Notes under the pieces: model-generated | Databases searched by the model: none | Seen by the model: only the letters and a program-made list of their open reading frames with translations | Told to the model about the DNA's origin: nothing | Part shown: piece by piece, positions 6,240 to 43,131 of the stretch | How positions within the stretch are numbered: position 1 is the first letter of the stretch | Layout: each line of letters starts with the position of its first letter | NCBI GenBank assembly: GCA_038749105.1 | Contig: JBCDIM010000013.1 | Location: 1,825 to 65,824, forward strand | DNA length: 64,000 bases | From: Planctomycetota bacterium | GTDB lineage: Bacteria > Planctomycetota > Phycisphaerae > Phycisphaerales > Phycisphaeraceae | Direction of reading: 5' to 3' | Program-made: the position numbers and the translations under genes

Positions 6240-8006
6240 CTACCGGATGAACCGCATCCTGCCGAAGTCGGGAATGGGCAACTTCCGCTCGGGCAGGGCG
6301 TAGAACGGCGTGGGGTAGTAGACAAAGAACGCCCGTCCGCCAATCAAGCCACGCGGGACACGGCCTGCGAATGTGACCGGGTCTGCCCGAGGGCTCTGGG
6401 GCGATGATCCGGCCGAGTCCGGGTTGAAGTAGCGATCCAGCACACGGGGATCGACGGTCCGCCAAAACCGGCTGTCCTCGGACCGCGTCGTGTTGTCCCC
6501 GGAGACGTAGAAGTCGTCGGGACCGAGCCGGGCGGGGGGGTTGTCAGGTCCGCCGTTGCCCTGGCGACGCAGTCCGCCGCGGGCCATCTTGGCGTCGCTC
6601 GAAACGTTGTAGTAGACATCGCGGTCCAGCTGCACCTCACGCAGCTGAGCGGGCCCACCCGTGACGGTGATCAGCACCCGGGGCAGGGGGGTCGGCCTCG
6701 GCCGGTCATAGACCTGACTCAGCGTGGCGGGCCACTGCCAGCGGAGCCGTTCTCGGCCGTTAACAAACACGATGGCGGAATGGTCGACCTGCCAGAGCTC
6801 GACCCGGGTAAAGCCATCGGAGGGGAGCGGGTCGAGCTGGACGGGGTCGACCGGCGTACGGGTGTTGCCGTCGTCATCGGTGACGCGGAGCGAGAGGGTG
6901 CCGTCTGGGTCGAAGCGGGCTTCGAGGCGTTCGAGGCCCGGGCGGTCGAGCCTGGCCGTGACCACCAACGACAGGGCCGCGCCAGGCTGGTCGGGCATGA
7001 TATCGGCGGCGAGCCGGAGGTCGGTGATGGGCTGCGGGAGGGTGGTCGAGCGTTTCTGGTTGTACGGGTAACGGTTGTCGGTACGGGCCGAGCGGTTGGC
7101 CTGGAAGTCGAAGGCGAGCCGACCCACACCGCCGTCCTCAGCGGTAAAGGTGTAGAGCGGCGAGTCGAGGTCCTCCCAGGCCCCGGCCTCGGCTTTCCAA
7201 GGCACCTCAAACCCGAAACCCTCGGGGCGCCCCGAGGTGTCGGCCGCGTCGAGCGGCGTGTATCGGCTGTGATAGATGGGCTGAAACATCGCACGCTGCA
7301 CCCGTTCCCACGCGGGGTTCTCGGCGGGGTCGGTCTTGCGAGCGATGCGGTAGGCGTCGTCGCCGGGAGCCTTGACGAACACGTCCCCGTCCAGCAGGTA
7401 GAGGCTCTCGCCGGGCAGGCCAAGCACGCGCTTGATGAAGTTGGTGTCGGGGCCGGGGCTTTTTTGCGGGCTCTTGAAGACGATCACGTCCCAGCGATCG
7501 GGGTCGGTGAAGAGGTAGGCGAGCTTGTTGACGAGGATGCGGTCGCCGGTGCCGAGGGGCGTGCCCTTGGGGACGGTGACCGGGGCGTTGGTCATGGGCG
7601 ACATGACGACCAGGGCGTCGTGGTCGTCGTTGGGGACGGTGATGTAGTCGCGGAGGAGCGTGCGTGCCCGGCCGTCGGCGTCGATCACCGTCTCGCGGTA
7701 CGCCCACTCGGGGACCTCGACCGAGAAGGCGTAGCCCGAGGTGGGATCGGTCACACGGACGTGCTGGCCGAGCAGGGTGGGGGCCATCGACCCGGTCGGG
7801 ATGATGAAGGCCTCGATCACAAACCCGCGGAAGACGAACGCCAGGATCAGCGCGAGGATGACCGACTCGATCGTCTGCTTGATCGTGGCTTCGGTGGACG
7901 GCGACGTGCTGGGCGTCGAAGCCGGCTCAGACGCGGGTGCCGGCGGGGGCTGTGCGTCAGGTTTTTCCAGCTCGGCCTCGGGTGTTTCAGGTGTGCGGTC
8001 CGCCAC
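6240..8006 (-). CDS. lepB: Signal peptidase I, unusually long (588 aa)
   Basis: Box B IPTGSMAPTLLG (Ser nucleophile), box D FIKRVLGLPGESL (Lys), box E YVSGDNTTRSEDSRFW. About 300 aa lie between boxes D and E. Confidence 0.9.
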   Translation of the reverse strand: MADRTPETPEAELEKPDAQPPPAPASEPASTPSTSPSTEATIKQTIESVILALILAFVFRGFVIEAFIIPTGSMAPTLLGQHVRVTDPTSGYAFSVEVPEWAYRETVIDADGRARTLLRDYITVPNDDHDALVVMSPMTNAPVTVPKGTPLGTGDRILVNKLAYLFTDPDRWDVIVFKSPQKSPGPDTNFIKRVLGLPGESLYLLDGDVFVKAPGDDAYRIARKTDPAENPAWERVQRAMFQPIYHSRYTPLDAADTSGRPEGFGFEVPWKAEAGAWEDLDSPLYTFTAEDGGVGRLAFDFQANRSARTDNRYPYNQKRSTTLPQPITDLRLAADIMPDQPGAALSLVVTARLDRPGLERLEARFDPDGTLSLRVTDDDGNTRTPVDPVQLDPLPSDGFTRVELWQVDHSAIVFVNGRERLRWQWPATLSQVYDRPRPTPLPRVLITVTGGPAQLREVQLDRDVYYNVSSDAKMARGGLRRQGNGGPDNPPARLGPDDFYVSGDNTTRSEDSRFWRTVDPRVLDRYFNPDSAGSSPQSPRADPVTFAGRVPRGLIGGRAFFVYYPTPFYALPERKLPIPDFGRMRFIR

Positions 8007-10166: not shown

Positions 10167-10682
10167 TCAGCCAGCGGTCGGCACCTCGTGGACGGCGACC
10201 TCGTCCGTCTGGGTGTCCAGCACCGCGACGGTGTACCGGCTGGCCCGGAACAGGGCCCCGGGGTTGATCACCCGCGTCTGGCCCCGCCGCTCGTCGGAGC
10301 AGCGGTGGGTGTGGCCGTGGCAGAGGTAGTCGACCCCGTCGCGGAGGGCGTCTTCCATGTCGGCCTCGACGTGCCCGTGGCAGAACGCCAACCGTTTGCC
10401 GTCCAGCTCGATCCGGCCGGCGGGGTGGTCCACCGCGATGCCCAGGGTCTGGGCGTACTGGGACATCGCGGGGATGTCCCAGTCGGTGTTGCCGAAGACC
10501 AGCCGGGAGTCCACCGGGCGGTCCGTGACGCCCTCGACCGCCAACGCGTCCACGACCTCGACGCTGCCCACGTCGCCCAGGTGCAGCAGCACGTCGATGC
10601 CCTGGTCCAGCAGCAGGTCAACCGCCCGGAGGGTCGTCTGCGTTCGGCCGTGTGAGTCTGAGAGTAGTCCGATCTTTGCCAA
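10167..10682 (-). CDS. YfcE/MJ0936-type metallophosphoesterase
   Basis: LLSDSHG, LHLGDVG, GNTD, CHGHTH motifs in the canonical order of calcineurin-like phosphoesterases. Confidence 0.8.
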   Translation of the reverse strand: MAKIGLLSDSHGRTQTTLRAVDLLLDQGIDVLLHLGDVGSVEVVDALAVEGVTDRPVDSRLVFGNTDWDIPAMSQYAQTLGIAVDHPAGRIELDGKRLAFCHGHVEADMEDALRDGVDYLCHGHTHRCSDERRGQTRVINPGALFRASRYTVAVLDTQTDEVAVHEVPTAG

Positions 10683-21703: not shown

Positions 21704-22999
21704 TCACCGCTTCAACGGCTGCAACACCACCACCCGCTCCTCCGCCGACTTTGGCACATGCACCAGCACCGAATAGGACACCCCAGCGCCCTCACCCTCG
21801 AGCACACTCAGCCGATACCGCCCCGCGAATACCCGCCGGTACACGTTGCCCAGCTCGTCGCCGGTCCCCACCGTGTCCGTCCACCACAGCCCACGGAACA
21901 AGCCCTCGAGCGCCTTGCCCGAAGGCGTCGGCTCCGCGTCGGCACCGATCAGCTCCGCGTGCCGCGCTAAGCCCTCACTCGGCCGGACCGACTTCATGTA
22001 CACCCCCGCGACGCTCGGCTCGGCGAACGCCAACCGCAGCACCGTCTCCAGGTTGATCGCCGCCGCCACCGGCGTAGGACCACCCACCTCCAGCTCCGCC
22101 AGCGTGATCGGCTTGCCCAGCGCCCCCGCACGATCCAGCGACCGCTCCAGCCGCAGCGGCTCGACCCGGCCCTCGAACCGCTGCTCAATGGTCAGCCCGT
22201 CGAACGGCACCACCAGCTGATTCAAACCCGCCACGGTCTCGAACAGCCGACCCTCCCGCCCCGGGCTCAGCCCGCCCCGCACCCGCAGGCTCATCGGCAC
22301 CCCCGGCGCCAGAAAACGCGCCTGCTGGAACAGCCGACGCACCCCCGCCAGCCCAAGCCGGTCCTGCATCATCGAGTGCGACAAAGCATCCGCATACAGG
22401 TCGAACCCGTCGATACGTTTGCCGAACACCGTCATCACCACCCCGACGTGCTCGCGGACGCTCGCTTCCACCGCCTTCGCGTCCTGCCCCGCGAGCCAGT
22501 CCGGGTTCGCCGCCGGGTCGGCCGACAGCACCGGGCCCCACCGGATCGTCCGCCCCGTGGTCGCCACCCCCGACAGCACCGCGTCCAGCCGGTCCAGCCC
22601 CCGCACGTCGTCCACCGCCGACTCCATCACCGCCCAGCCCGTCAGCGGCGCCAGCGAGATCGCGTTGAACACCCCCAGCACCGGGTCGCCCAGGTCCATC
22701 CCCATCACGACCCGGTCGTCGAACGTGCACCCGACCTCGAAGTCGTGCGCGACCTGCTCGATCCGCACCGTGGCCCCCTCGACCGGATCGCCGGCAGCAT
22801 CCAGCACGATTACCCGCAGGTCCGTCATCCGGTGCCGCTCGATCCGCTCCTGCGCCGCGTCTACCCACGCGCCCTGCAGAAGTTGCGCCTGAACGGGTGC
22901 TGTCAGGCCTAGCGTGAAGATCGCCAAGACGCCAAGACGCCAAGACGCCAAGAAGAAAAACCCACTCAAAACGGCGAAGCAATGGCTCCGATCCGCCAT
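21704..22999 (-). CDS. Secreted hypothetical protein, possibly a TIM-barrel glycoside-hydrolase-like fold
   Basis: Start set at MADRSHCFAVLSGFFFLASWRLGVLAIFTLGLTAPVQA (signal peptide). RIERHRMTDLRVIVLDAAGDPVEGATVRIEQVAHDFEVGC resembles N-terminal regions of GH10-like proteins, but the catalytic NE / TELD motifs are not clearly present. Confidence 0.45.
   Translation of the reverse strand: MADRSHCFAVLSGFFFLASWRLGVLAIFTLGLTAPVQAQLLQGAWVDAAQERIERHRMTDLRVIVLDAAGDPVEGATVRIEQVAHDFEVGCTFDDRVVMGMDLGDPVLGVFNAISLAPLTGWAVMESAVDDVRGLDRLDAVLSGVATTGRTIRWGPVLSADPAANPDWLAGQDAKAVEASVREHVGVVMTVFGKRIDGFDLYADALSHSMMQDRLGLAGVRRLFQQARFLAPGVPMSLRVRGGLSPGREGRLFETVAGLNQLVVPFDGLTIEQRFEGRVEPLRLERSLDRAGALGKPITLAELEVGGPTPVAAAINLETVLRLAFAEPSVAGVYMKSVRPSEGLARHAELIGADAEPTPSGKALEGLFRGLWWTDTVGTGDELGNVYRRVFAGRYRLSVLEGEGAGVSYSVLVHVPKSAEERVVVLQPLKR
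22923..22954. repeat. Octamer tandem array (GCCAAGAC x3 + GCCAAGAA), arm A of a 30-bp perfect inverted repeat; lies inside the signal-peptide codons of CDS 21704..22999
   Basis: Read directly. 22923-22952 is the exact reverse complement of 23035-23064. Confidence 0.9.
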
Positions 23000-23034: not shown

Positions 23035-23065
23035 CTTGGCGTCTTGGCGTCTTGGCGTCTTGGCG
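23035..23065. repeat. Octamer tandem array (CTTGGC + GTCTTGGC x3), arm B of the inverted repeat; lies upstream of the start codon of CDS 21704..22999
   Basis: Read directly. The 82-nt spacer between the arms contains the ATG at 22997-22999 (minus strand). Confidence 0.9.
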
Positions 23066-23186
23066 TTGAAAAGAGCGCATACACGCACTATCGACCAAGC
23101 CGTACCGCTCACCACAGCCTCGCGTCGCAACGAGTGGTCTCGCCACGCGACTGCGGATAAGATCGTGTCACCGACAGACAACGCCC

Positions 23187-23615
23187 ATGTGCAAACGCGT
23201 CGCCCAATACACCCTGATCGTCATCGCCGGCTACCTCCTCACCGGCCTGCCCACAGCAGCAAAAGTCTGCTGCCTGGGCTGCGGTGACAGCAACGCCCTC
23301 GCCGACACGACACCGATCAGCCACTCCACCGCGGTCCCGGCCCCGAGCCAGGGCTGCTGCGCCGTCGTCATCCCGATCGAACCGTCACCCACCCACGCCG
23401 AACCCTCGTCCGCTCTGGCGTCACCCGGATCTGAAGACACGCCCTCCACCAAGAAGCACTGCTCCGGAGCCCCCTGCTGCAAGGCGGCCCCCACGCTGAC
23501 CCCACCGGCCCCTAAGCCCTCACCCCTCCTCGCCTGCGGCACCCCGCAGGCCCTTCTCCAGGCCCTGGCCCCCACCGAAGCCTGGCCGCTCGATCCGCCC
23601 CCGCCACGCGGTTGA
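23187..23615 (+). CDS. Membrane-anchored cysteine-motif, proline-rich hypothetical protein
   Basis: 142 aa with GC3-rich codons. N-terminal TM YTLIVIAGYLLTGLP, then CCLGCG, GCC and HCSGAPCC motifs in a Pro/Ser/Thr-rich chain. Confidence 0.55.
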   Translation: MCKRVAQYTLIVIAGYLLTGLPTAAKVCCLGCGDSNALADTTPISHSTAVPAPSQGCCAVVIPIEPSPTHAEPSSALASPGSEDTPSTKKHCSGAPCCKAAPTLTPPAPKPSPLLACGTPQALLQALAPTEAWPLDPPPPRG

Positions 23616-23693
23616 TGCTGTGAAGTCCAGACGGGCGTCCGCCACACCGGCGGGCGCGGACCCTCGCATCATCCTTACGGAAAGGATCGAGCC

Positions 23694-23825
23694 ATGAAAA
23701 CCTTCACGGCCCTCCTCGTCGCATCCGTGCTGACCCTCGTCGGCCCGGTCGCCCTCGGCGGCAGCTGCAACTGCTGCCCCGTCGGCTGCGACTGCGACAC
23801 CTGCAACTGCAGCTGCTGCAAGTAA
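23694..23825 (+). CDS. Unannotated 43-aa exported cysteine-rich peptide (below the ORF-track length cutoff)
   Basis: ATG preceded by GGAAAGGA. Translation is MKTFTALLVASVLTLVGPVALGGSCNCCPVGCDCDTCNCSCCK, a Sec-type signal peptide plus a 20-residue tail with 9 Cys. GC3-rich codon usage matches the genome; a hairpin follows. Confidence 0.6.
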   Translation: MKTFTALLVASVLTLVGPVALGGSCNCCPVGCDCDTCNCSCCK

Positions 23826-23846
23826 CCCGTAGCAGTCAAAACCACC

Positions 23847-23875
23847 CCGGCCCGTCGCTCCCCGCGGCGGGCCGG
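23847..23875 (+). terminator. Candidate hairpin terminator between the Cys-peptide gene and the convergent hslU
   Basis: CCGGCCCG-N13-CGGGCCGG followed by CTTGCTTCC. No strong U-tract. Confidence 0.35.
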
Positions 23876-30990: not shown

Positions 30991-31042
30991 TTTAGCCCCC
31001 GGCTCTGCCGGGGGGCACTTGGCGTACCGGATGCCTCACGCC
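30991..31042. repeat. TTTAGCC-hairpin element (long, about 50-nt subfamily), copy 1, between convergent pilB and GT4
   Basis: TTTAGCCCCCGGCTCTGCCGGGGGGCACTTGGCGTACCGGATGCCTCACGCC aligns along its length with 45185-45237. The hairpin is GCCCCCGGC-TCTG-CCGGGGGGC. Confidence 0.8.
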
Positions 31043-32244
31043 GCCCGACGCCCGCCCCGCGTCTTCGGCTCTATCTGCGGCGTTGTCTCCACCCCAAGCA
31101 GCCGGTCATACACCGCCGCGACCTTCGCCATCCGCTGCGTAAAGCCATACTCCCGCACGACCCGCTCACGCGCCGCCGCGACCTGCGTCGCCACGTGCGA
31201 GCTCGGCCCGAGCAGACCCGATACCGCCCACGGCCAGTCCGCCTCGTGACGCCCCAGCAGCCGCCCACACCGGCCACCATCCAACGCCTCACTCACCGCA
31301 CCCACCGCCGTCGCCGCCACCGGCACTCCCACCGCCATCGCCTCCAGCAACGCGTTCGGCAGCCCCTCCGTCCGGCTGGGCAACAGCAACGCGTGCATCG
31401 CCTCTAGATACGTCTTCACGTCCCGCTGCCAGCCATGCCAGAACACCCGGCCGGTCATCCCCAACCGCTGCACCTGTTCCGTCAAACGCTTGCGCTCGGG
31501 CCCGTCACCAATCACGTGCAGCTCGACCCGCTCGTTCAGCTTCGCCAGTGTCGGCATCACTTCGATCGCCCGATCGACACCCTTCTCCACGCTCAGCCGG
31601 GCGATCACGCCGAGCACCACCGCGTCTTCCGACATCCCCAGCGCCGCCCGTGCCTCGGCCCGACTCCGCGTCCGCTGATAGACCGACGTGTCGATCGCGT
31701 TCGGCAGGGGGGTCACCCGCTCCTCGTCCATCCCCAGCCCACGGCAGTGCTCGACCAGCTCGAGGCTCACCGCGAACGCGTGGTCGTAACGCTTGATCGC
31801 GGGGTCGGCGATCTTGGCGTAGAGCCGGGTCTTCCAGGTGTCGCGTGTGAAGCCGTGCAGCGTTGTGATCAGCTTCATCGGGTGACGCCGCCGCAGCAGC
31901 AGCCCCAGCACCTCGCTCTTGTAGTCGTGGGCGTGCCAGACCTTCACCCCGTCCCGCCGACAGATCTCCAGCAGGGCGGGCAAGACCCGCCAGTCCAACG
32001 GCCCCCGATCCGCGATCGACTCGAACGGACAACCTTCTTCCAAGGCGGTGCGTTGAAGCACCGCCAGCCCTGGGTCTTCCGGGTCCGCCAGGTACGCCGC
32101 CGACAATGCGTAACGTGCCGGGTCCATCGCCTTCGGTGACCGCAAGATCGTCTTGTCCGGGCCACCCCCGGCACCGTTCACCACCCGCACATGCAACACC
32201 CGCACCCCGCGCCCGTTCTTCATCGTTTCAACAGTGTTCAACAT
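31036..32244 (-). CDS. Glycosyltransferase family 4 (GT-B)
   Basis: Start set at MLNTVETMKNGRGVRVLHV. C-terminal PSRTEGLPNALLEAMAVGVPVAAT (E-x7-E). Confidence 0.8.
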   Translation of the reverse strand: MLNTVETMKNGRGVRVLHVRVVNGAGGGPDKTILRSPKAMDPARYALSAAYLADPEDPGLAVLQRTALEEGCPFESIADRGPLDWRVLPALLEICRRDGVKVWHAHDYKSEVLGLLLRRRHPMKLITTLHGFTRDTWKTRLYAKIADPAIKRYDHAFAVSLELVEHCRGLGMDEERVTPLPNAIDTSVYQRTRSRAEARAALGMSEDAVVLGVIARLSVEKGVDRAIEVMPTLAKLNERVELHVIGDGPERKRLTEQVQRLGMTGRVFWHGWQRDVKTYLEAMHALLLPSRTEGLPNALLEAMAVGVPVAATAVGAVSEALDGGRCGRLLGRHEADWPWAVSGLLGPSSHVATQVAAARERVVREYGFTQRMAKVAAVYDRLLGVETTPQIEPKTRGGRRAA

Positions 32245-32261
32245 TTCCCGTTCCTTTCTTT

Positions 32262-33074
32262 TCATTCCGGCTTGCGCAGCACCACGATCAGGTTGCTCTG
32301 CAGCCCACGCAGCCCCGGCAGCGTCGTCGCCTTGATCATCAACATCTCGGGGACCACCCAACGCCCCAGCGTCCGCGTCTCCGGCGACGTCGGCACCCCG
32401 GCCAGCGCATCCATGACCAGGCCCGCCCGCTTCGCCACTCGACGCAACCGCCGCGTGCTATTCATCCGGTAGTAGGCGGGGTACACGTCCTCCGCCGCCC
32501 GCCCCTCCAACCAGCCCGCCATCCGACTCGCTAGCCGATCCGGCACCACACTCGCCGCCGCCGTCAGCGGGTACCACCGGTTGGGCGTGTGGATCAGCAC
32601 CCGACCACCCGGCCGCAGCACACGCGCCACCTCCGCCATCGCCCGCCGCGGACGACGCAGGTGCTCCGCCACCATGTTCATTGTCACAAGGTCCACACTC
32701 GCGTCCATCACGGGCAGCCGCGTGGCATCGCCCAACCGCAGATCGATCCCCGAAGTGTTTTCTTCTAAAGCCGATACATCCGGGTCCACCCCGATCACAT
32801 AGCCGGCTCGTTCCACCAACGCGTGCTGTCGCGCTTCGCCGCCCCGCAGCCAGCCCGGCGTCAGCCGACGCCCACAGCCCAGGTCCAGCCAGTCATCGCC
32901 CTCCCCGAGCACACCGTCCAGTACGTCGAAGTAGGCGTACTGCGAGTTCATTAAACCCGGCAACAGCCGACGTCGCATCGCCCAGTAGCAGCGGTCATCG
33001 ACGGGTGGCACAACGGGCGTCGCCACCAACGGGCTCGTAGCAGGGGACGCGGTCACAGCATGAACCCCGGGCAT
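32262..33074 (-). CDS. Class I SAM-dependent methyltransferase
   Basis: WLDLGCGRR (motif I), VDLVTMNMVAEHL, LRPGGRVLIHTPN. The ATG at 33074 overlaps the end of the upstream rSAM gene; ATG 32978 is an alternative start. Confidence 0.75.
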   Translation of the reverse strand: MPGVHAVTASPATSPLVATPVVPPVDDRCYWAMRRRLLPGLMNSQYAYFDVLDGVLGEGDDWLDLGCGRRLTPGWLRGGEARQHALVERAGYVIGVDPDVSALEENTSGIDLRLGDATRLPVMDASVDLVTMNMVAEHLRRPRRAMAEVARVLRPGGRVLIHTPNRWYPLTAAASVVPDRLASRMAGWLEGRAAEDVYPAYYRMNSTRRLRRVAKRAGLVMDALAGVPTSPETRTLGRWVVPEMLMIKATTLPGLRGLQSNLIVVLRKPE

Positions 33075-34324
33075 TCGGCACACGGGTTGTTTTCCGCCTG
33101 CTCGTCGGTGATCCGCTTCTTGAAGCTCCGCCGGGCCATCCGGTATTTCTCACCATTCCAGACCTTGCCGAAAGGGCGGTCCAGGGCGGATCCCATGTCC
33201 AGCTCGTGCTCGAACGACCCGCAGCAGACCACGACCTCACCGTCCCAGTTGATCACGCTCTGCCGCCAAGGCCAGGCACAGTTGTGCATCTTGCTCCCAT
33301 TGAATTCTGGTCCCGGATGCGCTCCCGTATCGCGGATCGATTGATAGTTCGACAACACGTAATCCGGGTTCTTGGGGAGCCACTCTTCGAGGTGGTCTTT
33401 GGTCTTTTTCTGAAGGAGGTCGTCGGCAAGCCCGAGCGGCTGGAGCTTCTTATCACGATCGAGGAACCGTAGGTTCATCGAAGCCTGCGAGAAGATCGGC
33501 CGGCAGTCCAGTGACTCCGCCAGTTCGCGGAATACCTCGATCTCGTGCTCGTTGTGCCGTGTCACGACAAAGTTCAGCTGGATCACCGGCGTTGCCGACT
33601 GCAATCGTTGCCGGGTCTCCACGATGTGCTTAACCTTCGCCAGCGTGTCTTCGTAGCTCTTGCCCGGCTGATAGATCGCGAAGGTCTCCTGGCTCGCCCC
33701 GTGCAGCGAGCAGGTCAGCATGTCCAGACCCGACTCGATCAGCTTGGTCGCGTCGTCCTTCCCTTCGACCCCGCCGTCTTTGGTCTTCCGCGGCTCGATC
33801 CGGAACGCGTGCAGGTTGGATGAGATGTAGGTCCAGACGCCGCTGCGGTGCGAGTGGTTGATCATCCGGTAGATATCGTTGTGCACCAGCGGGTCGCCCC
33901 ACATCGACAGGTCCAGCTCGAACAGGTGGCGTTTGACCTGCTTGAACAGCTTTTCGAACGACGCGAAATCCATGCGGCCCTTGCGTCGCCCTTTGAGTCC
34001 CTGGCCGGTCGGGCAGAGCTGGCAGCGGGTGTTGCAGATGTTGGTCGGCTCGATCTTCATCGCATATGGCCGACCGATCACGCGTTCCCGCTTGAGCAGG
34101 AACTCCACGTTGATCAGGGCCATGTTGGCGAGTTTGTAGGCCGTGAGGTACCGGCGGTTCCGCCAGGCCCAGAAGACCCCCCGGGCCAGGAAATCGACCG
34201 CGGCGGTCATTCGTTGCAGCGGAGCCCTCAGGTCGGGTTTGGCCTTCCAGCGCCCGGTCAGGGCGGTGGCCTGCGCCAGCCGGCGGTCAAGCGTCGAGCT
34301 CAGTGTGGTCGCGATTGCGGTCAT
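33053..34324 (-). CDS. Radical SAM enzyme with C-terminal SPASM/twitch-type cysteine cluster
   Basis: IEPTNICNTRCQLCPTG (CxxxCxxC). C-terminal CAWPWRQSVINWDGEVVVCCGSFE ... NPCAECPG. The start ATG overlaps the stop of the upstream ligase gene (ATGA at 34321-34324). GC is visibly lower than in the neighbours. Confidence 0.8.
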   Translation of the reverse strand: MTAIATTLSSTLDRRLAQATALTGRWKAKPDLRAPLQRMTAAVDFLARGVFWAWRNRRYLTAYKLANMALINVEFLLKRERVIGRPYAMKIEPTNICNTRCQLCPTGQGLKGRRKGRMDFASFEKLFKQVKRHLFELDLSMWGDPLVHNDIYRMINHSHRSGVWTYISSNLHAFRIEPRKTKDGGVEGKDDATKLIESGLDMLTCSLHGASQETFAIYQPGKSYEDTLAKVKHIVETRQRLQSATPVIQLNFVVTRHNEHEIEVFRELAESLDCRPIFSQASMNLRFLDRDKKLQPLGLADDLLQKKTKDHLEEWLPKNPDYVLSNYQSIRDTGAHPGPEFNGSKMHNCAWPWRQSVINWDGEVVVCCGSFEHELDMGSALDRPFGKVWNGEKYRMARRSFKKRITDEQAENNPCAECPGFML

Positions 34325-35724
34325 ACCCAAGCCCCCACCCGACCGCGGACACCCGGCTCCGGCTCCGGCTCGGCTTCCGTCTCGGCCTCCGGCGCATCCT
34401 CGTCTTCTTTCAGGCCCTGCTCTGACTCGCGCCGCATCAGCACCGGAGCCAGCCCGCCCAGGGCCATCAGCATCCAGGGCAGTTCCACAGCTTCGGCCGA
34501 CAGGAACAGCGCCGCCACCATAAAGCACAGCAGGCTCGCCTGGAGCGCGAGGCATAGCCGGGCCCGGTCGCCCCAGGCCGCTGCCTCCGGATCACTGGTC
34601 GAAATCAGGGGCGGATCACCCCGCGCGGGCGTGCCGTGCAGCCGCTCGGCCTCGAAGAGGCACGTCTTGCGAGCACGCCCGAACCCGTAGAACGCCAGCC
34701 CGATCGCCAGCACATAGGCGAGCGCCGCGGGGATCCCCGAGTCGGCCGCAAGCTGCAGGTACTGGTTATGGATCGTGCGGTTCGCCATGTCCGCCCCGAA
34801 GTTGTACGACAGCCGGTTCGAGTTCCGAACACCCCGGCCCAGCAGCGGCTCGTCCCAGGCGATCCGCCAGGCTGCGCCCCACGCGTCGAACCGCGACTGG
34901 GCCGACTCGTCCTCCTGGAAGTTCTTCGTCGACATGAACCGGTCGCGGATCTCCGGCCCCGCCATCACCGCCACCGCCAGCGAAAGCGCCGCTAGCCCCA
35001 CCAGCGCCTGCTTCCTGGGCCGGTGGTGCACCAGCAGCCAGATCAACGCCACCGACAACGCCACCATCGCCCCCCGCGAGTACGTCATCATCACCGCGTG
35101 CATCATCAGCAGCCCGAGGAACACCGCGAACACCCGCTTGACCATCACCATCCGGCCCGCCTGCATCAGCCCGAACACATACGCAAACGGCACGCCCATC
35201 GCGATGAACGCGCCTGCCCCGTTGTTGTCCAGCCCCCCGAACCCGTGATGGAACACATCCAGCCGACCGCCCTCGAAGAAGTACATCGCGTTGATCGAAT
35301 ACGCGTGATACCCGATGCACAGCAGCACCATCCCACCGACCGCCCAGAGGTGCCAGGGCTTGCTGATGATCAAGCTCGCCAGGAAGAACACCAGCAGCAC
35401 CTTCCCGTACTCCATCGCCCAGGCCTGGGCCAGGTACGGGTCGTCCGCAGTCACCACGCTCATGGTCATGAATGCTGTGTAGGCCAGCACACAGAGCAGC
35501 ACCGCCCCGAGCCGGGCCTGCCGCCACACCTTGCTGAAGTGCAGCATCACCGACCCCAGCAGCGCGAACGCCGCGATCAGTGACCAACGCAGCTCAGGCC
35601 CGGTGTTCAACGACCAGTGCCAGATGTGCTGCGGGCGCAGTGTCGCCAACCCGTAATACAGCAGCAGCGGCCAGAAAGGCGAGATCAGCCCGCCCAACGC
35701 CCCCACACCAATGGCTACCGTCAT
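34321..35724 (-). CDS. O-antigen ligase-like (Wzy_C domain) polytopic membrane protein
   Basis: More than 10 TM segments. MMTYSRGAMVALSVALIWLLV resembles the Wzy_C core, followed by a large loop. Start set at MTVAIGVG (ATG 35724); the ORF continues to 35856 through lower-GC sequence. Confidence 0.7.
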   Translation of the reverse strand: MTVAIGVGALGGLISPFWPLLLYYGLATLRPQHIWHWSLNTGPELRWSLIAAFALLGSVMLHFSKVWRQARLGAVLLCVLAYTAFMTMSVVTADDPYLAQAWAMEYGKVLLVFFLASLIISKPWHLWAVGGMVLLCIGYHAYSINAMYFFEGGRLDVFHHGFGGLDNNGAGAFIAMGVPFAYVFGLMQAGRMVMVKRVFAVFLGLLMMHAVMMTYSRGAMVALSVALIWLLVHHRPRKQALVGLAALSLAVAVMAGPEIRDRFMSTKNFQEDESAQSRFDAWGAAWRIAWDEPLLGRGVRNSNRLSYNFGADMANRTIHNQYLQLAADSGIPAALAYVLAIGLAFYGFGRARKTCLFEAERLHGTPARGDPPLISTSDPEAAAWGDRARLCLALQASLLCFMVAALFLSAEAVELPWMLMALGGLAPVLMRRESEQGLKEDEDAPEAETEAEPEPEPGVRGRVGAWV

Positions 35725-35884
35725 AAACAGGAAGTGCTTCACAAGAAAAGACTGGAAGACGAGGAAGTTCAACGTCGGGTCGTCCGTGACATCGGGTACG
35801 CGCGGAAAACCCCCCGGTCTATGTCGGCCCCCAACCCAAACCGCCTCCCCGATCACCCCCAGGCCCCCCGGTTATCGGCCCCTC

Positions 35885-37333
35885 ATGCACACACCGACCC
35901 CCGCCTCCAACGGCCAGTCCGTCCCCCAACCCGATACACCCTCAATGGCCGAGCTGCTCCGACCACACCCATCCAGACGCCGGCTCAGGCTCCCGCTGAT
36001 CTGCGTGGCCGTATTCGTGCTCGCGTTTGCTGTCCGCGTTGCCATGGCTTCCGCGTTCGTCGGACTGGGTGCCCCGCCCGACGCCAACGCGAACATCGAT
36101 CAGGTCGACTTCGAGATTATCGCCTGGCACCTCGCCCAAGGCCACGGCTTCACCGTCGATGGCTCCACCCCCACCGCCCGTCGCGCCCTCGGGGCCCCGC
36201 TGATCTTTGCGCCCGTCTACCTGATCACCGGGCAACGCGACTTCGGGATCCTCCGCCTCTGGATCATCGCCCTCTCCGCCGCGACGTGCGTGCTGACCGC
36301 CCTGATCGCCCGACGCCTCGCCCCACCCCGCTACGCCACGCTTGCCGCCGCCCTGGCGGGCCTGGGCCTCGCCCTCTACCCCGGGCACGCCTACTACGCC
36401 ATGCACATGCTCAGCGAGCCCCCCTTCGCCGCGTGCCTCGCCCTGGCGACCTACCTCTCGCTCCTCGCTTGGCAGCACCCCGCAGCCCGCTCCCGGCAGA
36501 CCTGGATCCTCACCGCCGCCGCTGGCACCGCTTGGGCACTGCTCATCCTCACCAAGCCGCAGTTCATCCTGCTGCTCCCGCTCGCCGCCGCCGCGCTGGT
36601 CACCCCGCCGACCGTCCGCTGGCTCCGCCGCCGACCAGTCCGCCTCGTGCAGACGCCCGGCCCGCAGCTGGCCTTCGCGCTGCTCCTCACCACACTGCTC
36701 GTCGTGCCCTGGGGTGTCCGCAACCACCAACAGCTCGGCGTCACCGGGCTCTCCTCCATCGTCGGGCTCGGGCTCTGGGGCGGCAACAACGAGCTGATCC
36801 TTGACGACCCGATCTGGCGCGGCCGATGGCTCCGCATCAGCGAGGTCGAACGCCGGCTCAACCAGCCACTGCCCGACGGCGAAGCCGCCGCCAACCGCGA
36901 GGCCAAGCAGCGCGGCCTCGCCTTCATGAGAGCCCACGCCGCCGAGATGCCCGCCCTCACCCTAACCAAGCTGCAACGCCTCGTCACGCCCTTCCCCCGC
37001 ACCACCAACACCGCCGCCCGCTGGTCCGAAGCGCTCGCCTGGATCACCCTCGCCCCGCTGACCCTCCTCGGCCTCATCCACCTGCTCCGGCACCAACGCC
37101 ACACCCTGGCGTTACCCCTGCTCCTCGCCCCGGTCGTCGTCACCGTCGGTACCGCGGCCGTCTTCTTCGGCATCGTCCGCTACCGCAACGCCCTGGCCCC
37201 CACGCTCCTGGTCCTGGGCGCCCTCGGCCTCGCCTCGCTCCTACACGCCCTCCGCAGCCGCTACGCCAAACCTAACCACACTGCTTACCCGCTGCGCACC
37301 GAAGAGCCACTCCCGACGCGCCGGGCCGCGTGA
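35885..37333 (+). CDS. GT-C fold glycosyltransferase (ArnT / PMT_2, family 39/83-like)
   Basis: Polytopic. N-terminal TM followed by DQVDFEIIAWHLAQGHGF (the D-x-x-Y/F ... G-x-G loop typical of ArnT/PMT-like enzymes). Alternative start 35945. Confidence 0.6.
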   Translation: MHTPTPASNGQSVPQPDTPSMAELLRPHPSRRRLRLPLICVAVFVLAFAVRVAMASAFVGLGAPPDANANIDQVDFEIIAWHLAQGHGFTVDGSTPTARRALGAPLIFAPVYLITGQRDFGILRLWIIALSAATCVLTALIARRLAPPRYATLAAALAGLGLALYPGHAYYAMHMLSEPPFAACLALATYLSLLAWQHPAARSRQTWILTAAAGTAWALLILTKPQFILLLPLAAAALVTPPTVRWLRRRPVRLVQTPGPQLAFALLLTTLLVVPWGVRNHQQLGVTGLSSIVGLGLWGGNNELILDDPIWRGRWLRISEVERRLNQPLPDGEAAANREAKQRGLAFMRAHAAEMPALTLTKLQRLVTPFPRTTNTAARWSEALAWITLAPLTLLGLIHLLRHQRHTLALPLLLAPVVVTVGTAAVFFGIVRYRNALAPTLLVLGALGLASLLHALRSRYAKPNHTAYPLRTEEPLPTRRAA

Positions 37334-39370: not shown

Positions 39371-40270
39371 TCAGGGTGGTGGCGGCTGCCAGTCGGGGTC
39401 GCCTATCGTCGCCGCTAGATTGTTCCACCGCGTCATATCCGACAACGCAACGAAATCAAGATAGGTCGCCGAGCCATCGAGGTGAGACACAATCGCGCTC
39501 TCCTGGCAGCGGAAATCAACCGAGCCCGTATCTTCAGGGACCCCGTCCGGATCGTACGCCGTACCCTGCCACCGGTTCGAAGCGAGTTGATCACTCGGGG
39601 CGGTCACTCGGTAGTTCCCCGGCACCACGTCTTCGCCCGCCGCATCAAGCCCGAACGCCGAAGCGAAGACCAGCAGCCGACTGGGGTCCACCGCCTCTTC
39701 AAACCGGCGGACCACGCCGGGGTTGTTCTCGGTGTTACCCCCCAAGACGAAATAGCCTCCAACGTTATTGGTGTTCATCCCGAAGCTCGGGTTAATGCTG
39801 ACGCGGTACATCCAGACACCGTACTCCGGGTCGCCAGCCCCACCGGTGAAGTCTGTGCTAAACGCAGCCCCGCCTGGCGGGGTAGCGTCCGCATCGGCCC
39901 GCTCGTTGATTAGCACCGACCCTTCCAACGCGTAATCCAGGTAGTTCACCAGCCGCCACGGATAACGCCAAGCTGAGACCCCAAAGAACGGCTCACCGTT
40001 CGGTGCGTAGCCCGGCTCGTCCACCGCATAGCCCTTGATAATCAACCCGTCCTCGTCCAATGACCTGATCGTCACCGCTTGGAGGAGCGTCCGCGCAGCC
40101 GCCAATTCGGCCGCACACGCCGCCGCCTGCCGGCTGGCACCCAACACCGGCAGCAGAATACCAATCAGCAGCGCAATGATGCTGATCACCACCAACAACT
40201 CCACCAAGGTAAAACCACGCACTGCCCGATACTTCACGCCGTGTTCCTTTGCAAGGAGCATCCCGAACAA
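39371..40270 (-). CDS. Prepilin-type N-terminal cleavage/methylation domain protein (DUF1559 / HX9DG-type pseudopilin-like)
   Basis: RGFTLVELLVVISIIALLIGILLPVLG prepilin signal. The C-terminal ...VSHLDGSATYLD resembles the DG end of the HX9DG motif. 24-nt gap to the upstream PEP-CTERM gene. Confidence 0.8.
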   Translation of the reverse strand: MFGMLLAKEHGVKYRAVRGFTLVELLVVISIIALLIGILLPVLGASRQAAACAAELAAARTLLQAVTIRSLDEDGLIIKGYAVDEPGYAPNGEPFFGVSAWRYPWRLVNYLDYALEGSVLINERADADATPPGGAAFSTDFTGGAGDPEYGVWMYRVSINPSFGMNTNNVGGYFVLGGNTENNPGVVRRFEEAVDPSRLLVFASAFGLDAAGEDVVPGNYRVTAPSDQLASNRWQGTAYDPDGVPEDTGSVDFRCQESAIVSHLDGSATYLDFVALSDMTRWNNLAATIGDPDWQPPPP

Positions 40271-40294
40271 TCGCCCGCAGCGTAATCCAATGCC

Positions 40295-41074
40295 TTAGAT
40301 CTTGGCGGCTGCACGCCGACGCCGGCCACACACCACAGCCCCGCTCAAGCCAAACAGCAGCAACGCGTTTGGTTCGGGGATTACCAATGCGAAGGTATCG
40401 CTCTGATCAAGTTGGAGAGCAAGGATCGTACTACTTGTTCCCGCCGTCTCGAAACGGACATCCACCTCACTGATCGGCCCAAGGCCACGCAAGTCCCACT
40501 GATACCGCAGCGTCCCGACCGGCACCGGCCCAAAGCCCGAATCGAAAGGGGGGGCCACCGAAAGATCAGACGCTACATAACCGATATTGGTGGTCTCATC
40601 CCCGTTGATGTAGAGCGTCGGATCATCCTCCAAGTACACGCCAAACTCGGAGCCCGATCCGATCTCGATCTGAAAAATCAGCGTTTCGATGTCAGTCACA
40701 GGCGTGGTGTCGAAGACCTTGAATACGCCGCTGCCGTTCGGCGACGTATAGATGCTGATCCCCGCCGGGTAGCCATTGCCTGAGACCTTGTCGAAGAGGG
40801 CGTCACCCGTGGGGTCATCGTCGCTGGAGCTAAAGGTATTGAACGTGAGTAGCGACTCGATCGGTTCCGGCCACAGAGCCGAACCAGGAAAATTGGGGAA
40901 GATCGGATCGGCCGTCGCGACCTGCGGATTCGTCCGCGTCAGGTTGTCCCACGCATCGAAGTCCGCACTACCCGGAAGACTGACCGAGGTGACGACGGCA
41001 ACCGCACTTTGGGTCCACAGCAACGCAGCCAAGACCGAAACACTGGCGTATCGCGATTGAGTCAAAGCAAGCAT
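40295..41074 (-). CDS. PEP-CTERM sorting-domain protein (paralog 1)
   Basis: Signal peptide SVLAALLWTQSAVA. C-terminus VIPEPNALLLFGLSGAVVCGRRRR (PEP motif, TM, Arg cluster). Shares WDNL..TNPQV and SSDDDPTGDA.FDK.SG.GYP.G.SIY blocks with 41266..42066. Confidence 0.85.
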   Translation of the reverse strand: MLALTQSRYASVSVLAALLWTQSAVAVVTSVSLPGSADFDAWDNLTRTNPQVATADPIFPNFPGSALWPEPIESLLTFNTFSSSDDDPTGDALFDKVSGNGYPAGISIYTSPNGSGVFKVFDTTPVTDIETLIFQIEIGSGSEFGVYLEDDPTLYINGDETTNIGYVASDLSVAPPFDSGFGPVPVGTLRYQWDLRGLGPISEVDVRFETAGTSSTILALQLDQSDTFALVIPEPNALLLFGLSGAVVCGRRRRAAAKI

Positions 41075-41265
41075 CCTAAGCCTTACCGAATCACCGGATG
41101 TTTGTCCGGAATGCCCAAACCATCAACCTTGTGGCTAACCGAGCGACAGTGTGACAGTCATTCGGCGAGGGTGTGGTCACCTCGATCCAGAAAACCGCCC
41201 ACGTCCCCCCCAAAAACACTCCGACGCCGGTCAAGGAGAGGGAGTGATCGGATCGCGACAGCGGC

Positions 41266-42066
41266 TCAGCCTTCCCGCCGACGACGTCGAGCCGTAAGCA
41301 TGACACCGCCCAGCCCGAGCAGGGCCAAGGAGGCCGGCTCAGGAATCACTTGGGACAACGGGGCAAACGTATCGCCCTGGTCAAGCTGCAATTGACGGAT
41401 ACTGGTACTCGACCCACCCATGGTGAAATCGATGTCGAACGAGCCGATGGGATCGCTGATTCCGGAGACGTCCCAACTAAAAGCGATTGTGTTGACCGTC
41501 AGGGGGCCAAACTCTCCAGCGGGGTCAAAAATAGACTCAAGAATAGAAACCTCGGTCGGAAGGATCGTGGGAGTGTCACCGTTTACGCCAAGCACCGGAT
41601 CGCCAGCCAGAAAAACACCGCCATCACCACTGCCTAACTGGATCTGAAAGACCACGATTTCAAGATCGTCGACGGGGGTGGCGTCGGAGATACGATGGAC
41701 TGCGGGGATGTGCGGCGGAGCGGGCGCCGGAAACTGTGGCCCGCCATAGATCGACTGGCCGGACGGATAGCCCTGCCCCGAAAGCTTGTCGAACTGGGCG
41801 TCTCCGGTGGGGTCATCGTCAGACGTGTCAAATGTGCCCTGGGTCAAAACGGACTCGATCGGGACAGCCCAGGGCTGCAAACCGGGGAAGCCGCCGAACG
41901 CCCCAGGAGCCACCAGCACCTGCGGGTTAGTCGCCGACAGGTTGTCCCACCCGTCATTCTGCGTGTCACCCGACAGAAAAACCTCCACGGGCTCGGCCTG
42001 TGCCGAACCCGCAACAACAATTCCAGCAGCAGCAATCGCTGCCAACATGGTGGACCGACTCGTCAT
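41266..42066 (-). CDS. PEP-CTERM sorting-domain protein (paralog 2)
   Basis: Start set at MTSRSTMLAAIAAAGIVVAGSAQA with GGAGG 8 nt upstream. C-terminus VIPEPASLALLGLGGVMLTARRRRR. Confidence 0.85.
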   Translation of the reverse strand: MTSRSTMLAAIAAAGIVVAGSAQAEPVEVFLSGDTQNDGWDNLSATNPQVLVAPGAFGGFPGLQPWAVPIESVLTQGTFDTSDDDPTGDAQFDKLSGQGYPSGQSIYGGPQFPAPAPPHIPAVHRISDATPVDDLEIVVFQIQLGSGDGGVFLAGDPVLGVNGDTPTILPTEVSILESIFDPAGEFGPLTVNTIAFSWDVSGISDPIGSFDIDFTMGGSSTSIRQLQLDQGDTFAPLSQVIPEPASLALLGLGGVMLTARRRRREG

Positions 42067-42214
42067 TTCAAAACCTCCACAAAAGGGGCGGGCTGGACAG
42101 CCCAAAGGGCGGGATCCGCTGTGGCAGCAGGCCACTCGGACTCAAGCGATTCGAGCGGTTGTGCTTAAGAACAAAAGCGCTCCTTAGCAGCTGAGACTCT
42201 GTCGCTGGTCACAG

Positions 42215-42243
42215 ATACTAGAAAGACTGCGACACGTTTGCAA
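42215..42243 (-). promoter_or_regulatory. Candidate sigma70-type promoter for the PEP-CTERM/pseudopilin gene string
   Basis: The minus strand reads TTGCAA (42243-42238), a 17-nt spacer, then TAGTAT (42220-42215), within an AT-richer spacer. This implies a 5' UTR of about 140 nt before ATG 42066. Confidence 0.4.
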
Positions 42244-42438
42244 CGACACAGCCTCCACTTTTGGGCTTTTCTCACATTTTTTTCTAATAAACCTATGAGA
42301 TGTCCAATACTGCCTGGCTAAGCCTCCAGGTCCAGAGCTCGCGTGCCCGCTGTGTGTGCCATACCTGCTTCGGAGGACCGCATGCCGTGCGCGGCTCTTG
42401 CTCACAACCCGCATCCACAGCCCGCTACACTCCGCGGC

Positions 42439-43131
42439 ATGCCCGACGCCTCACCCGAAGGCCTCATCGTGACCCTTGACGGGCCTGCCGGCTCCGGGAA
42501 GTCCACCGTGGCCCGACGGCTCGCAAAACGCCTCCGTGTCGACTTCCTCGATACCGGGGCGATGTACCGCGGTCTCACCGCGATGGCCCTGCTCCGGGGT
42601 ATCGACCCCGAGAACGAGCCTTTCTATGTCGTCGAGCTCGCCCGCAACTGCCCGCTGACCTTCAACTGGTCCACCGACCCGCCACGCATGCACGTCCGCG
42701 GCATGGACCTCACCGAACGCCTCCGCGATGCCGACGTCACCGGCTCGGTCTCCGATGTCGCCAAGCTCCCGGGTGTCCGCCAGGTGCTGGTCCAGAACCA
42801 GCGGCGGATCGGCCGGGAGCACCCCCGCCTGGTCACCGAAGGCAGAGACCAGGGCTCGGTCGTCTTCCCCGACGCCCACGCCAAGTTCTATCTCGACGCC
42901 AACGCCACCGTCCGGGCCCAACGGCGTGCCGATCAGCTCAAAGCCGCCGGCGTCCGGGCTGAGGTCGACCAGATCCGCCGCGAGATCCTCGCCCGTGACG
43001 AGAAGGACTCGACCCGCGAAGAGGCCCCGCTGATCTGCCCCGAGGACGCCCTGCATGTCGATACCAGCGACATGACCCTCGACCAGGTCGTCGACTACCT
43101 CGAACAGCACATCCAGCAACACACCCGCTAA
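42439..43131 (+). CDS. cmk: Cytidylate kinase
   Basis: IVTLDGPAGSGKSTVARRLA ... FLDTGAMYR ... GRDQGSVVFPDA are the Cmk signatures. Start set at MPDASPEG. Confidence 0.9.
   Translation: MPDASPEGLIVTLDGPAGSGKSTVARRLAKRLRVDFLDTGAMYRGLTAMALLRGIDPENEPFYVVELARNCPLTFNWSTDPPRMHVRGMDLTERLRDADVTGSVSDVAKLPGVRQVLVQNQRRIGREHPRLVTEGRDQGSVVFPDAHAKFYLDANATVRAQRRADQLKAAGVRAEVDQIRREILARDEKDSTREEAPLICPEDALHVDTSDMTLDQVVDYLEQHIQQHTR

Follow-up and report, generated by a model that had tools for sequence, protein, structure and literature searches.

A 64-kb stretch of DNA from a Planctomycetota metagenome-assembled genome (MAG), here called the window (67% G+C), carries two adjacent genes whose products are rich in cysteine. 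The first encodes a protein with CC motifs, referred to below as the CC protein, and the second encodes a short peptide that ends in a cluster of cysteines. Both open reading frames (ORFs) are real, conserved coding genes. Judged from their sequences, the two products may be a lineage-restricted thiolate pair of the cell envelope, which would buffer metal or hand it off, work like a metallothionein and fall into no known family. We put the probability of this reading at about 0.4.

The two ORFs are conserved coding genes

The pair occupies the identical position in the window and in contigs of two other Planctomycetota MAGs (designated L001 and L148) that are collinear with the window, in the order GH10-like gene, CC gene, peptide gene and hslU (Table 1). 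An earlier note on this DNA had described the peptide ORF with an upstream GGAAAGGA, codons rich in G or C at the third position (GC3) and nine cysteines in a 20-residue tail, preceded by an ORF with the motifs CCLGCG, GCC and HCSGAPCC. All of this was reproduced, and the coordinates and translation of the peptide ORF were exact. In a scan of all six frames, the peptide tail had the highest cysteine density of the window; the next-best value was 6 cysteines in 20 residues, and all stretches that reached it were out of frame or antisense. The G+C content at the three codon positions is 0.48/0.57/0.93 in the peptide ORF and 0.64/0.64/0.82 in the CC gene, comparable to the neighbouring hslU (0.71/0.41/0.87). 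The same note had called the peptide gene unannotated. This proved incorrect, since GenBank lists the peptide as a hypothetical protein, AAGI68_05075, next to the CC protein, AAGI68_05070; the L148 ortholog is a called gene too, and only the L001 ortholog is uncalled.

It is extremely unlikely that one or both ORFs are no genes at all, that is, a chance ORF of a G+C-rich genome, an alanine-rich antisense shadow or a 3' untranslated region (UTR). What speaks for this view is that antisense ORFs of 123 and 138 residues stay open across the region and that the reverse complement of GCN-rich DNA yields TGC. However, the GC3 signature is limited to the plus frames: the ORF antisense to the peptide gene (0.81/0.62/0.67) has no GC3 peak, and the one antisense to the CC gene (0.67/0.65/0.81) also lacks the signature. 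The ATG, the Shine-Dalgarno (SD) sequence and the stop codon of the peptide gene are kept in three genomes, an 18-nt insertion in L148 stays in frame, and the frame of the CC gene survives several indels. The cysteine codons are kept as well, one of them by a synonymous change. The antisense translation of the peptide gene is conserved no better, with 7 changes in 44 residues relative to L001; together with codon-position G+C, this rules out the alanine-rich antisense ORF as the true gene. Because the cysteines and the frame are conserved while the antisense frame is conserved no better, both ORFs are genes, and the peptide ORF is not a mere 3' UTR of the CC gene, an outcome that the earlier note had named as fatal to its proposal.

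Conservation and evolution of the pair

A word-indexed search of 5.8 billion proteins returned one homolog of the 142-residue CC protein, and a profile of these two proteins led to the third. Identity to the window protein is 57-59% in L001 and 38-39% in L148. The gene order common to the three loci starts with TsaD, a CtpB-like protease, POR subunits, an esterase-like gene, a T2SSG-like gene and the GH10-like gene, reaches the pair, and goes on with hslU, pilM/N/O, a type II secretion/type IV pilus (T2SS/T4P) ATPase, and GT4, methyltransferase and radical SAM/SPASM genes. The L001 peptide ORF, MKTFTAVLVASVLTLVGPVALGGSCSCCPVGCDCSPCDCSCCK, lies uncalled between the CC gene and hslU, and the L148 ortholog, MTLLTALLTTFVLSIASPTAPTAPTAPAGMDCPCGTACGCGPTHCGC, has 47 residues. 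The small gene is called in two of the three genomes and is an example of the micro-proteins that gene callers treat inconsistently. Conservation of the small ORF with its cysteines and synteny with the CC gene, the check that the earlier note had proposed, were both found in L001 and L148.

Between the window and L001, the peptide genes differ at 3 synonymous and 5 non-synonymous codons. All 9 cysteines are kept, one via TGC to TGT, and 4 of the 11 non-cysteine positions of the tail differ; nucleotide identity is 96% in the signal-peptide part and 89% in the mature part. The L148 tail, MDCPCGTACGCGPTHCGC, has 6 cysteines in three CxC pairs and also contains His and Met, and the locus shares GGAAAGGA, the ATG and the terminator stem with the window. 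The hslU genes of the three genomes are 95-97% identical, with a proportion of synonymous differences (pS) of 0.28-0.34. The ratio of non-synonymous to synonymous differences (pN/pS) is 0.5-0.7 for the CC gene; hslU has 0.06-0.09 and the GH10-like gene 0.14-0.20. Both genes of the pair evolve fast relative to their neighbours, yet their cysteine motifs are unchanged.

Searches with the peptide found no further relative. When the 43-mer was run with phmmer against 1.84 billion cluster representatives, it returned only itself, as did the word-indexed protein search. Metagenome contigs, scanned at the DNA level for the cysteine spacing together with Pro and Gly, gave 25 loci, all of low complexity and none a relative. 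A scan of genome contigs for the bare cysteine spacing, which was flooded by (TGC)n/(TGT)n microsatellites, gave no relative among at least 120 loci, and absence from reference genomes is not established by it. With the searches that were effective, the pair is a lineage-restricted orphan unit known from three related MAGs. In the literature, we found nothing specific on a periplasmic or exported metallothionein, nor among reports on Planctomycetota.

Sequence features of the peptide

The N-terminus of the peptide is consistent with a Sec signal peptide: after K2 comes a hydrophobic run of 19 residues (Kyte-Doolittle maximum over 15 residues, 2.4), and small residues occupy positions -3 and -1 of a putative cleavage site (ALG/G in the window, SIA/SP in L148). 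Furthermore, the N-terminal pattern M-x3-TALL-x3-VL-x4-P is kept in L148. The Sec-type hydrophobic N-terminus and the cysteine-cluster tail of the earlier description are thus supported, by hydrophobicity and the -3/-1 heuristic. Other kinds of processing were considered. LGGS/C of the window and L001 fits a relaxed PROSITE-style lipobox pattern, and L148 has no lipobox because GMD precedes its first cysteine. In the window and L001 the core follows a GG, in place of which L148 has APAG/MD; in addition, the leader is uniformly hydrophobic. The Pfam scans of the window, on which the statements about genomic context in this paper are based, covered about 60 ORFs. They gave no C39 peptidase, ABC exporter or dedicated exporter, and the peptide does not qualify as a double-glycine-leader bacteriocin. 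Because the L148 peptide lacks both the lipobox and GG, neither lipidation nor double-glycine processing is conserved. A cysteine-rich attenuation leader peptide was also rejected: the 3' side holds only the terminator and the convergent hslU.

The tail contains no aromatic or large hydrophobic residue, and its motifs run in the order CxCC, CxC and CxCxCC, in which CNCC and CSCC make two CxCC. It has the composition and motif pattern of an operational metallothionein (9 cysteines in 20 residues, CxC/CC and no aromatics). The export signal, which was assigned by heuristics, would depart from the cytosolic criterion of SmtA, BmtA and MymT. Profile searches with hmmscan against Pfam at E up to 10, using the full peptides and the mature tails of the three loci, found no metallothionein family. 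The peptide had no match in NCBIfam, or in the PDB by phmmer.

The CC protein

The CC protein starts with basic residues (K3/R4 in the window, K3 in L148), which are followed by one hydrophobic helix (about residues 8-24) and then by a proline-rich chain. The helix, Y-x-LIV-x-AGYLLTG-x-P, is invariant in all three orthologs and is the best-conserved part. Three cysteine motifs are also invariant: CxxC directly after the helix (C29, C32), CC (C57-58) and Cx4CC (C92, C97-98). The same is true of AAP-x-L after Cx4CC, of SPLL and of the C-terminal PLDPPPPR (end PLDPPPPRG). The linkers are rich in Pro, Ala, Ser and Thr, diverge freely and carry in-frame indels, and the number of external cysteines goes from 9 to 7 between orthologs. 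AlphaFold2, run on a shallow alignment, predicted a helix at residues 3-19 only, and the remainder had a predicted local distance difference test (pLDDT) score below 50. Because the basic residues precede the helix, the cysteine-bearing chain is predicted to lie outside by the positive-inside rule.

No Pfam or NCBIfam family of the CC protein was reproducible across the orthologs. A Pfam match to DUF6510 (E 0.007) was below the cut-off and was not reproduced in the orthologs, and a DUF6233 match of the L148 protein (P0004) was weak; both were taken as noise. A profile search of the CC family against the PDB gave a lone hemocyanin match (E 1.2), which we ascribe to chance. P0004, encoded at 10001-10417 of L148, has in residues 25-33 a canonical lipobox, VLSAC, and CPVCH where the window protein has AAKVCCLGCG; both features are absent from the other two CC proteins. 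A c-type haem site was rejected, as CPVCH occurs only in L148 and the others have CLGCG or CFGCG. TIGR04222 proteins are membrane proteins with periplasmic cysteine-rich ends that are associated with MNIO (PMC12452194). A link to them was also rejected, as there was no NCBIfam match.

A possible thiolate pair in the envelope and its alternatives

In the reading that we favour, two thiol-rich products would be placed on the periplasmic side of the inner membrane. The CC protein would insert N-in/C-out via its single helix, and its flexible, proline-rich chain would present CxxC, CC and Cx4CC outside. The peptide would be exported by Sec and either cleaved near ALG/G, which would leave a tail of about 21 residues, or left anchored. 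The tail, CxCC...CxC...CxCxCC, could bind Cu(I), Zn, Cd or Hg as thiolate clusters, and the tethered CC protein would capture this metal or pass it on. Synthesis of the peptide would be coupled to that of the CC protein by pairing of the SD.

Several features of the sequences favour metal sites over a fixed fold. The number and spacing of the cysteines vary (from 9 to 6), and the CxC/CC periodicity is kept. The version with fewer cysteines has His and Met, the cysteine count is odd, and residues that could form a core are missing. The partner is predicted to be disordered, and only its cysteine motifs, helix and C-terminus are conserved, which would also suit metal sites. On the other hand, a number of points weigh against the favoured reading. 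Free thiols would tend to form disulfides because the periplasm is oxidising. The peptide matches nothing in Pfam, metallothionein families included, or in the PDB, and both the cleavage of the signal peptide and the topology were assigned by simple heuristics. All scanned neighbours are housekeeping genes and none is metal-related: the scanned ORFs include no gene for Cu/Zn/Hg resistance, for a P-type ATPase or RND pump, or for a metal sensor. Conservation is shallow, because the family is known from three closely related MAGs.

An alternative is a disulfide-rich secreted or surface peptide (antimicrobial, toxin, signal or structural), with the CC protein as its immunity factor, docking site or mixed-disulfide anchor. 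Toxins with a cysteine framework and defensins have a conserved signal, a variable mature part and fixed cysteines, and the comparison with L001, in which the signal part varies less than the mature part, 4 of 11 non-cysteine residues of the tail changed and every cysteine was kept, resembles this. The fast evolution of both genes and the oxidising periplasm, which favours disulfides, also agree with it. However, the cysteine framework is not conserved in L148, where 6 cysteines in another spacing stand against 9. This weakens the disulfide reading. The 9 cysteines cannot all pair internally because their number is odd, the GG before the core is missing in L148, neither a dedicated exporter nor a C39 peptidase was among the scanned ORFs, and the CC protein has no recognisable immunity-like multi-pass topology among its predicted features. 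We consider such a peptide unlikely. If it were one, the pair would be of modest interest, as a small secreted factor specific to this lineage.

A membrane thiol relay is distinctly unlikely. Here both products would be anchored by their N-terminal helices as a small heteromer and, instead of buffering metal, would act in redox reactions, with persulfide or polysulfide, or in thiol-disulfide exchange. The helix is the best-conserved part of the CC protein and CxxC follows it directly; the hydrophobic pattern of the peptide is kept in the distant ortholog, more than one would usually expect of a signal peptide alone; and the predicted translational coupling suggests matched amounts of the two products. 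Against these observations stand the plausible signal-peptidase sites and the scans of the unit and the window ORFs, which gave no thioredoxin-like, DsbD-like or sulfurtransferase domain.

Genomic neighbourhood

The scanned ORFs are housekeeping, pilus/secretion and glycan genes. No mer, cop, cus or czc gene, including merA and merR, was among them. The same is true of maturases: no MNIO/DUF692, DUF2063, YcaO, lanthipeptide or other maturation enzyme was found among the scanned ORFs, and MNIO/DUF692 and DUF2063 were also absent among the called genes of L001 and L148. This bears on the possibility that the peptide is the precursor of a ribosomally synthesised and post-translationally modified peptide (RiPP), whose cysteines are modified (thioether, thiooxazole or similar) by a distant enzyme, for example the only radical SAM/SPASM protein of the window (33053-34555, minus strand). 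The cysteine-rich core behind an N-terminal segment would suit a precursor, and bufferins are RiPP precursors with a Sec signal (PMC11626156). In addition, the radical SAM/SPASM gene lies 9.2 kb from the unit and is syntenic in three of three loci. This synteny carries no information, because every gene of the region keeps its order from one MAG to the next. Between this gene and the pair lie hslU and the pilMNO(P)-ATPase operon; the gene belongs to a GT4/methyltransferase/Wzy glycan cluster, and no SCIFF, bufferin or other precursor model matched in NCBIfam or Pfam. Since no maturase adjoins the unit, the RiPP reading is weakened, and we regard it as very unlikely.

Some features of the neighbourhood are recorded here in their own right. 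The radical SAM/SPASM gene is flanked by a methyltransferase gene (32262-33083), a GT4 glycosyltransferase gene (31036-32361), a Wzy-type O-antigen ligase gene (34321-35856) and a gene for a PMT_2 protein (35711-37333). It has no obvious peptide substrate nearby, and the arrangement is syntenic in L001 and L148. At about 39500-42500, G+C falls to 58-63%, compared with 67-71% around it, and the ORFs lack the usual GC3 peak; among their products are one with the N-terminal methylation motif of pseudopilins (39371-40270, minus strand) and a PEP-CTERM protein (40295-41074, minus strand). This patch may be acquired DNA. An unusually long protein of 588 residues with a Peptidase_S26 (signal peptidase I) domain is encoded at 6240-8006 (minus strand), and its relevance to the processing of exported peptides is possible.

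Upstream region, RNA elements and predicted coupling

The promoter of the unit must lie in the upstream non-coding region (Table 1). A candidate TTGAAA-17-TATCGA promoter (23066-23094), proposed in the earlier note, was not borne out: a scan of the upstream region for the sigma-70 consensus gave no match, and the spacer of 17 nt in the window is 20 nt in L148. The octamer repeat, which the note took as one bracket of the unit, is likewise reassigned. Its arrays form a perfect 31-nt inverted repeat with an 82-nt loop that is unique in the window, where the octamer CGCCAAGA has 6 matches against 0.19 expected. The arrays are conserved in L001 (9727-9758/9842-9871) and L148 (9708-9740/9823-9855). 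They enclose the likely start codon of the divergent GH10-like gene (about 22999, minus strand); one arm is the 5' UTR of this gene, and the other encodes LASWRLGVLA, a part of its signal peptide. Because the arms bracket this start codon, the repeat belongs to the GH10-like gene and not to the cysteine-rich unit. It may be a long stem that controls translation, or a protein-binding array.

The intergenic spacer is 78 nt long. The leader of the peptide gene (23633-23693) differs from that of L001 at 2 of 61 nt, compared with a pS of 0.28 in neighbouring genes. In predicted folds, the SD and spacer (23684-23692, GGAUCGAGC) pair with GCUCGAUCC in the last codons of the CC gene (23588-23596). This 9-nt perfect complement was reached by 12 of 5000 shuffles, and the 10-nt complement of L001 by 5 of 5000. 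In L148, CCUUUCC directly after the stop codon (10418-10424) pairs with GGAAAGG of the SD (10482-10488), a match reached by 326 of 5000 shuffles. The SD region is paired in the predicted folds of all three loci. This suggests that translation of the peptide may be coupled to that of the CC gene, since with a paired SD, as predicted, the peptide would depend on translation of its partner. The intergenic hairpin (Table 1) is kept in L148 as an 8-bp stem with changed bases.

At the 3' end, the hairpin at 23847-23875 that the note had described was confirmed (z = -3.9 against shuffles). Its stem is identical in L001 and L148 (z = -4.2), and TTTCTATT follows it in L148. A self-contained two-gene unit is thus supported, as a conserved pair closed by a conserved hairpin before the convergent hslU. 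No Rfam family reached its gathering score in the window, and the best local match scored 33 bits against a threshold of 60.

Table 1. Features of the cysteine-rich unit and its flanks (window coordinates)
Feature	Position	Strand	Description
CC-protein gene	23187..23615	+	142 aa; contains CCLGCG, GCC and HCSGAPCC
Cysteine-rich peptide gene	23694..23825	+	43 aa
Shine-Dalgarno-like GGAAAGGA	23679..23686	+	7 nt 5' of the peptide ATG; unchanged in 3/3 loci
Peptide codons 1-22, MKTFTALLVASVLTLVGPVALG	23694..23759	+	Putative Sec-type signal peptide, or possibly uncleaved anchor (heuristic)
Peptide codons 23-43 and stop, GSCNCCPVGCDCDTCNCSCCK	23760..23825	+	CxC between two CxCC
Upstream non-coding region	23066..23186	+	Common to the divergent GH10-like gene; CACTATCGACCAAG and ACCACAGCC conserved in 3/3 loci
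Octamer inverted-repeat arms	22922-22952 / 23035-23065		CGCCAAGA x4 arrays
Candidate anti-SD arm GCTCGATCC	23588..23596	+	3' end of the CC gene (PLDP codons); complement of 23684-23692
Intergenic G+C hairpin GCGTCCGCC-ACACC-GGCGGGCGC	23635..23657	+	9 bp; predicted minimum free energy and centroid folds, 3/3 loci
Terminator-like hairpin	23847-23858/23864-23875	+	12-bp G+C stem

Comparison with known systems

Known bacterial metallothioneins are cytosolic. The peptide resembles metallothioneins (SmtA/BmtA, MymT and the alpha domain of vertebrate metallothionein) in its small size, in a tail with about 45% cysteine, CxC/CC motifs and no aromatics, and in non-cysteine positions that evolve freely. 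It differs in its putative Sec-type hydrophobic N-terminus, its mature part of about 20 residues and its membrane-anchored partner with cysteine motifs, and it matches no Pfam family or PDB sequence. The alpha domain of human MT2A contains CCSCCPVGCAKC, which is close to CNCCPVGCDC of the peptide; this likeness is most likely compositional convergence. In the MerP/MerT/MerF systems, a periplasmic cysteine protein and a membrane protein with vicinal cysteine pairs relay a soft metal, and the logic of a periplasmic cysteine peptide with a membrane cysteine partner is similar here. Unlike those proteins, the pair has no match to the HMA fold (GMTCxxC) or a Mer family in Pfam or NCBIfam, and the partner has one predicted helix, not two or three. 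SCIFF/ranthipeptides differ as well, since no NCBIfam precursor matched and the only radical SAM/SPASM gene is the one in the distant glycan cluster.

Cysteine-based metal binders outside the cytoplasm are already known. CopG, a periplasmic copper-resistance protein, holds a tetranuclear Cu cluster at CxCC, so that Cu-thiolate clusters are possible in the periplasm (PMC7558416). The peptide is likewise predicted to be periplasmic and has CxCC twice. CopG, however, is a folded thioredoxin-like (DUF411) domain with CxCC and Met that is linked to copA, cus or cueO; at 43 residues the peptide is too short for such a domain, gave no match to it in Pfam, and has no such neighbours. Csp1 is a Cu(I) store based on cysteines that is exported by the twin-arginine translocation (Tat) pathway (PMC7558416). 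It is a tetramer of four-helix bundles with more than 100 residues, whereas the peptide lacks a twin-arginine motif and is too short to form a helical bundle. Bufferins bind copper and are exported by Sec. They are RiPP metallophores made by MNIO/DUF692 and DUF2063 proteins; their precursors have 80-120 residues with DUF2282 or BUF_6/12Cys and need adjacent MNIO and DUF2063 genes (PMC11626156). The peptide shares with bufferins the small cysteine-bearing product and the proposed buffering of metal in the periplasm, and its N-terminus resembles a Sec signal by hydrophobicity and the -3/-1 rule. It differs in that the scans of the unit and the window ORFs gave neither the precursor family (Pfam, NCBIfam) nor the enzymes.

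The claim that an exported metal binder of this kind would be unusual is therefore only partly right: export as such has precedents in Csp1, CopG and bufferins (PMC7558416, PMC11626156), and what would be new is an unmodified peptide of about 20 residues with a tethered partner. Tentatively, and with more doubt than confidence, we propose that such a Sec-exported thiolate peptide and a tethered, disordered multi-cysteine partner, coupled by sequestration of the SD, would form a previously undescribed system of the planctomycete envelope (Planctomycetota) that buffers or relays soft metals. If this were true, it would offer a minimal, easily synthesised metal-binding module. One would then have to explain how free thiols persist in an oxidising compartment, and the tethered partner may be the answer. 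The known periplasmic cysteine-based metal binders form two groups, folded proteins such as CopG and Csp1 and enzymatically protected peptides such as bufferins; to these the pair would add a third, namely a thiolate peptide that is genetically encoded, bare and active outside the cytoplasm.

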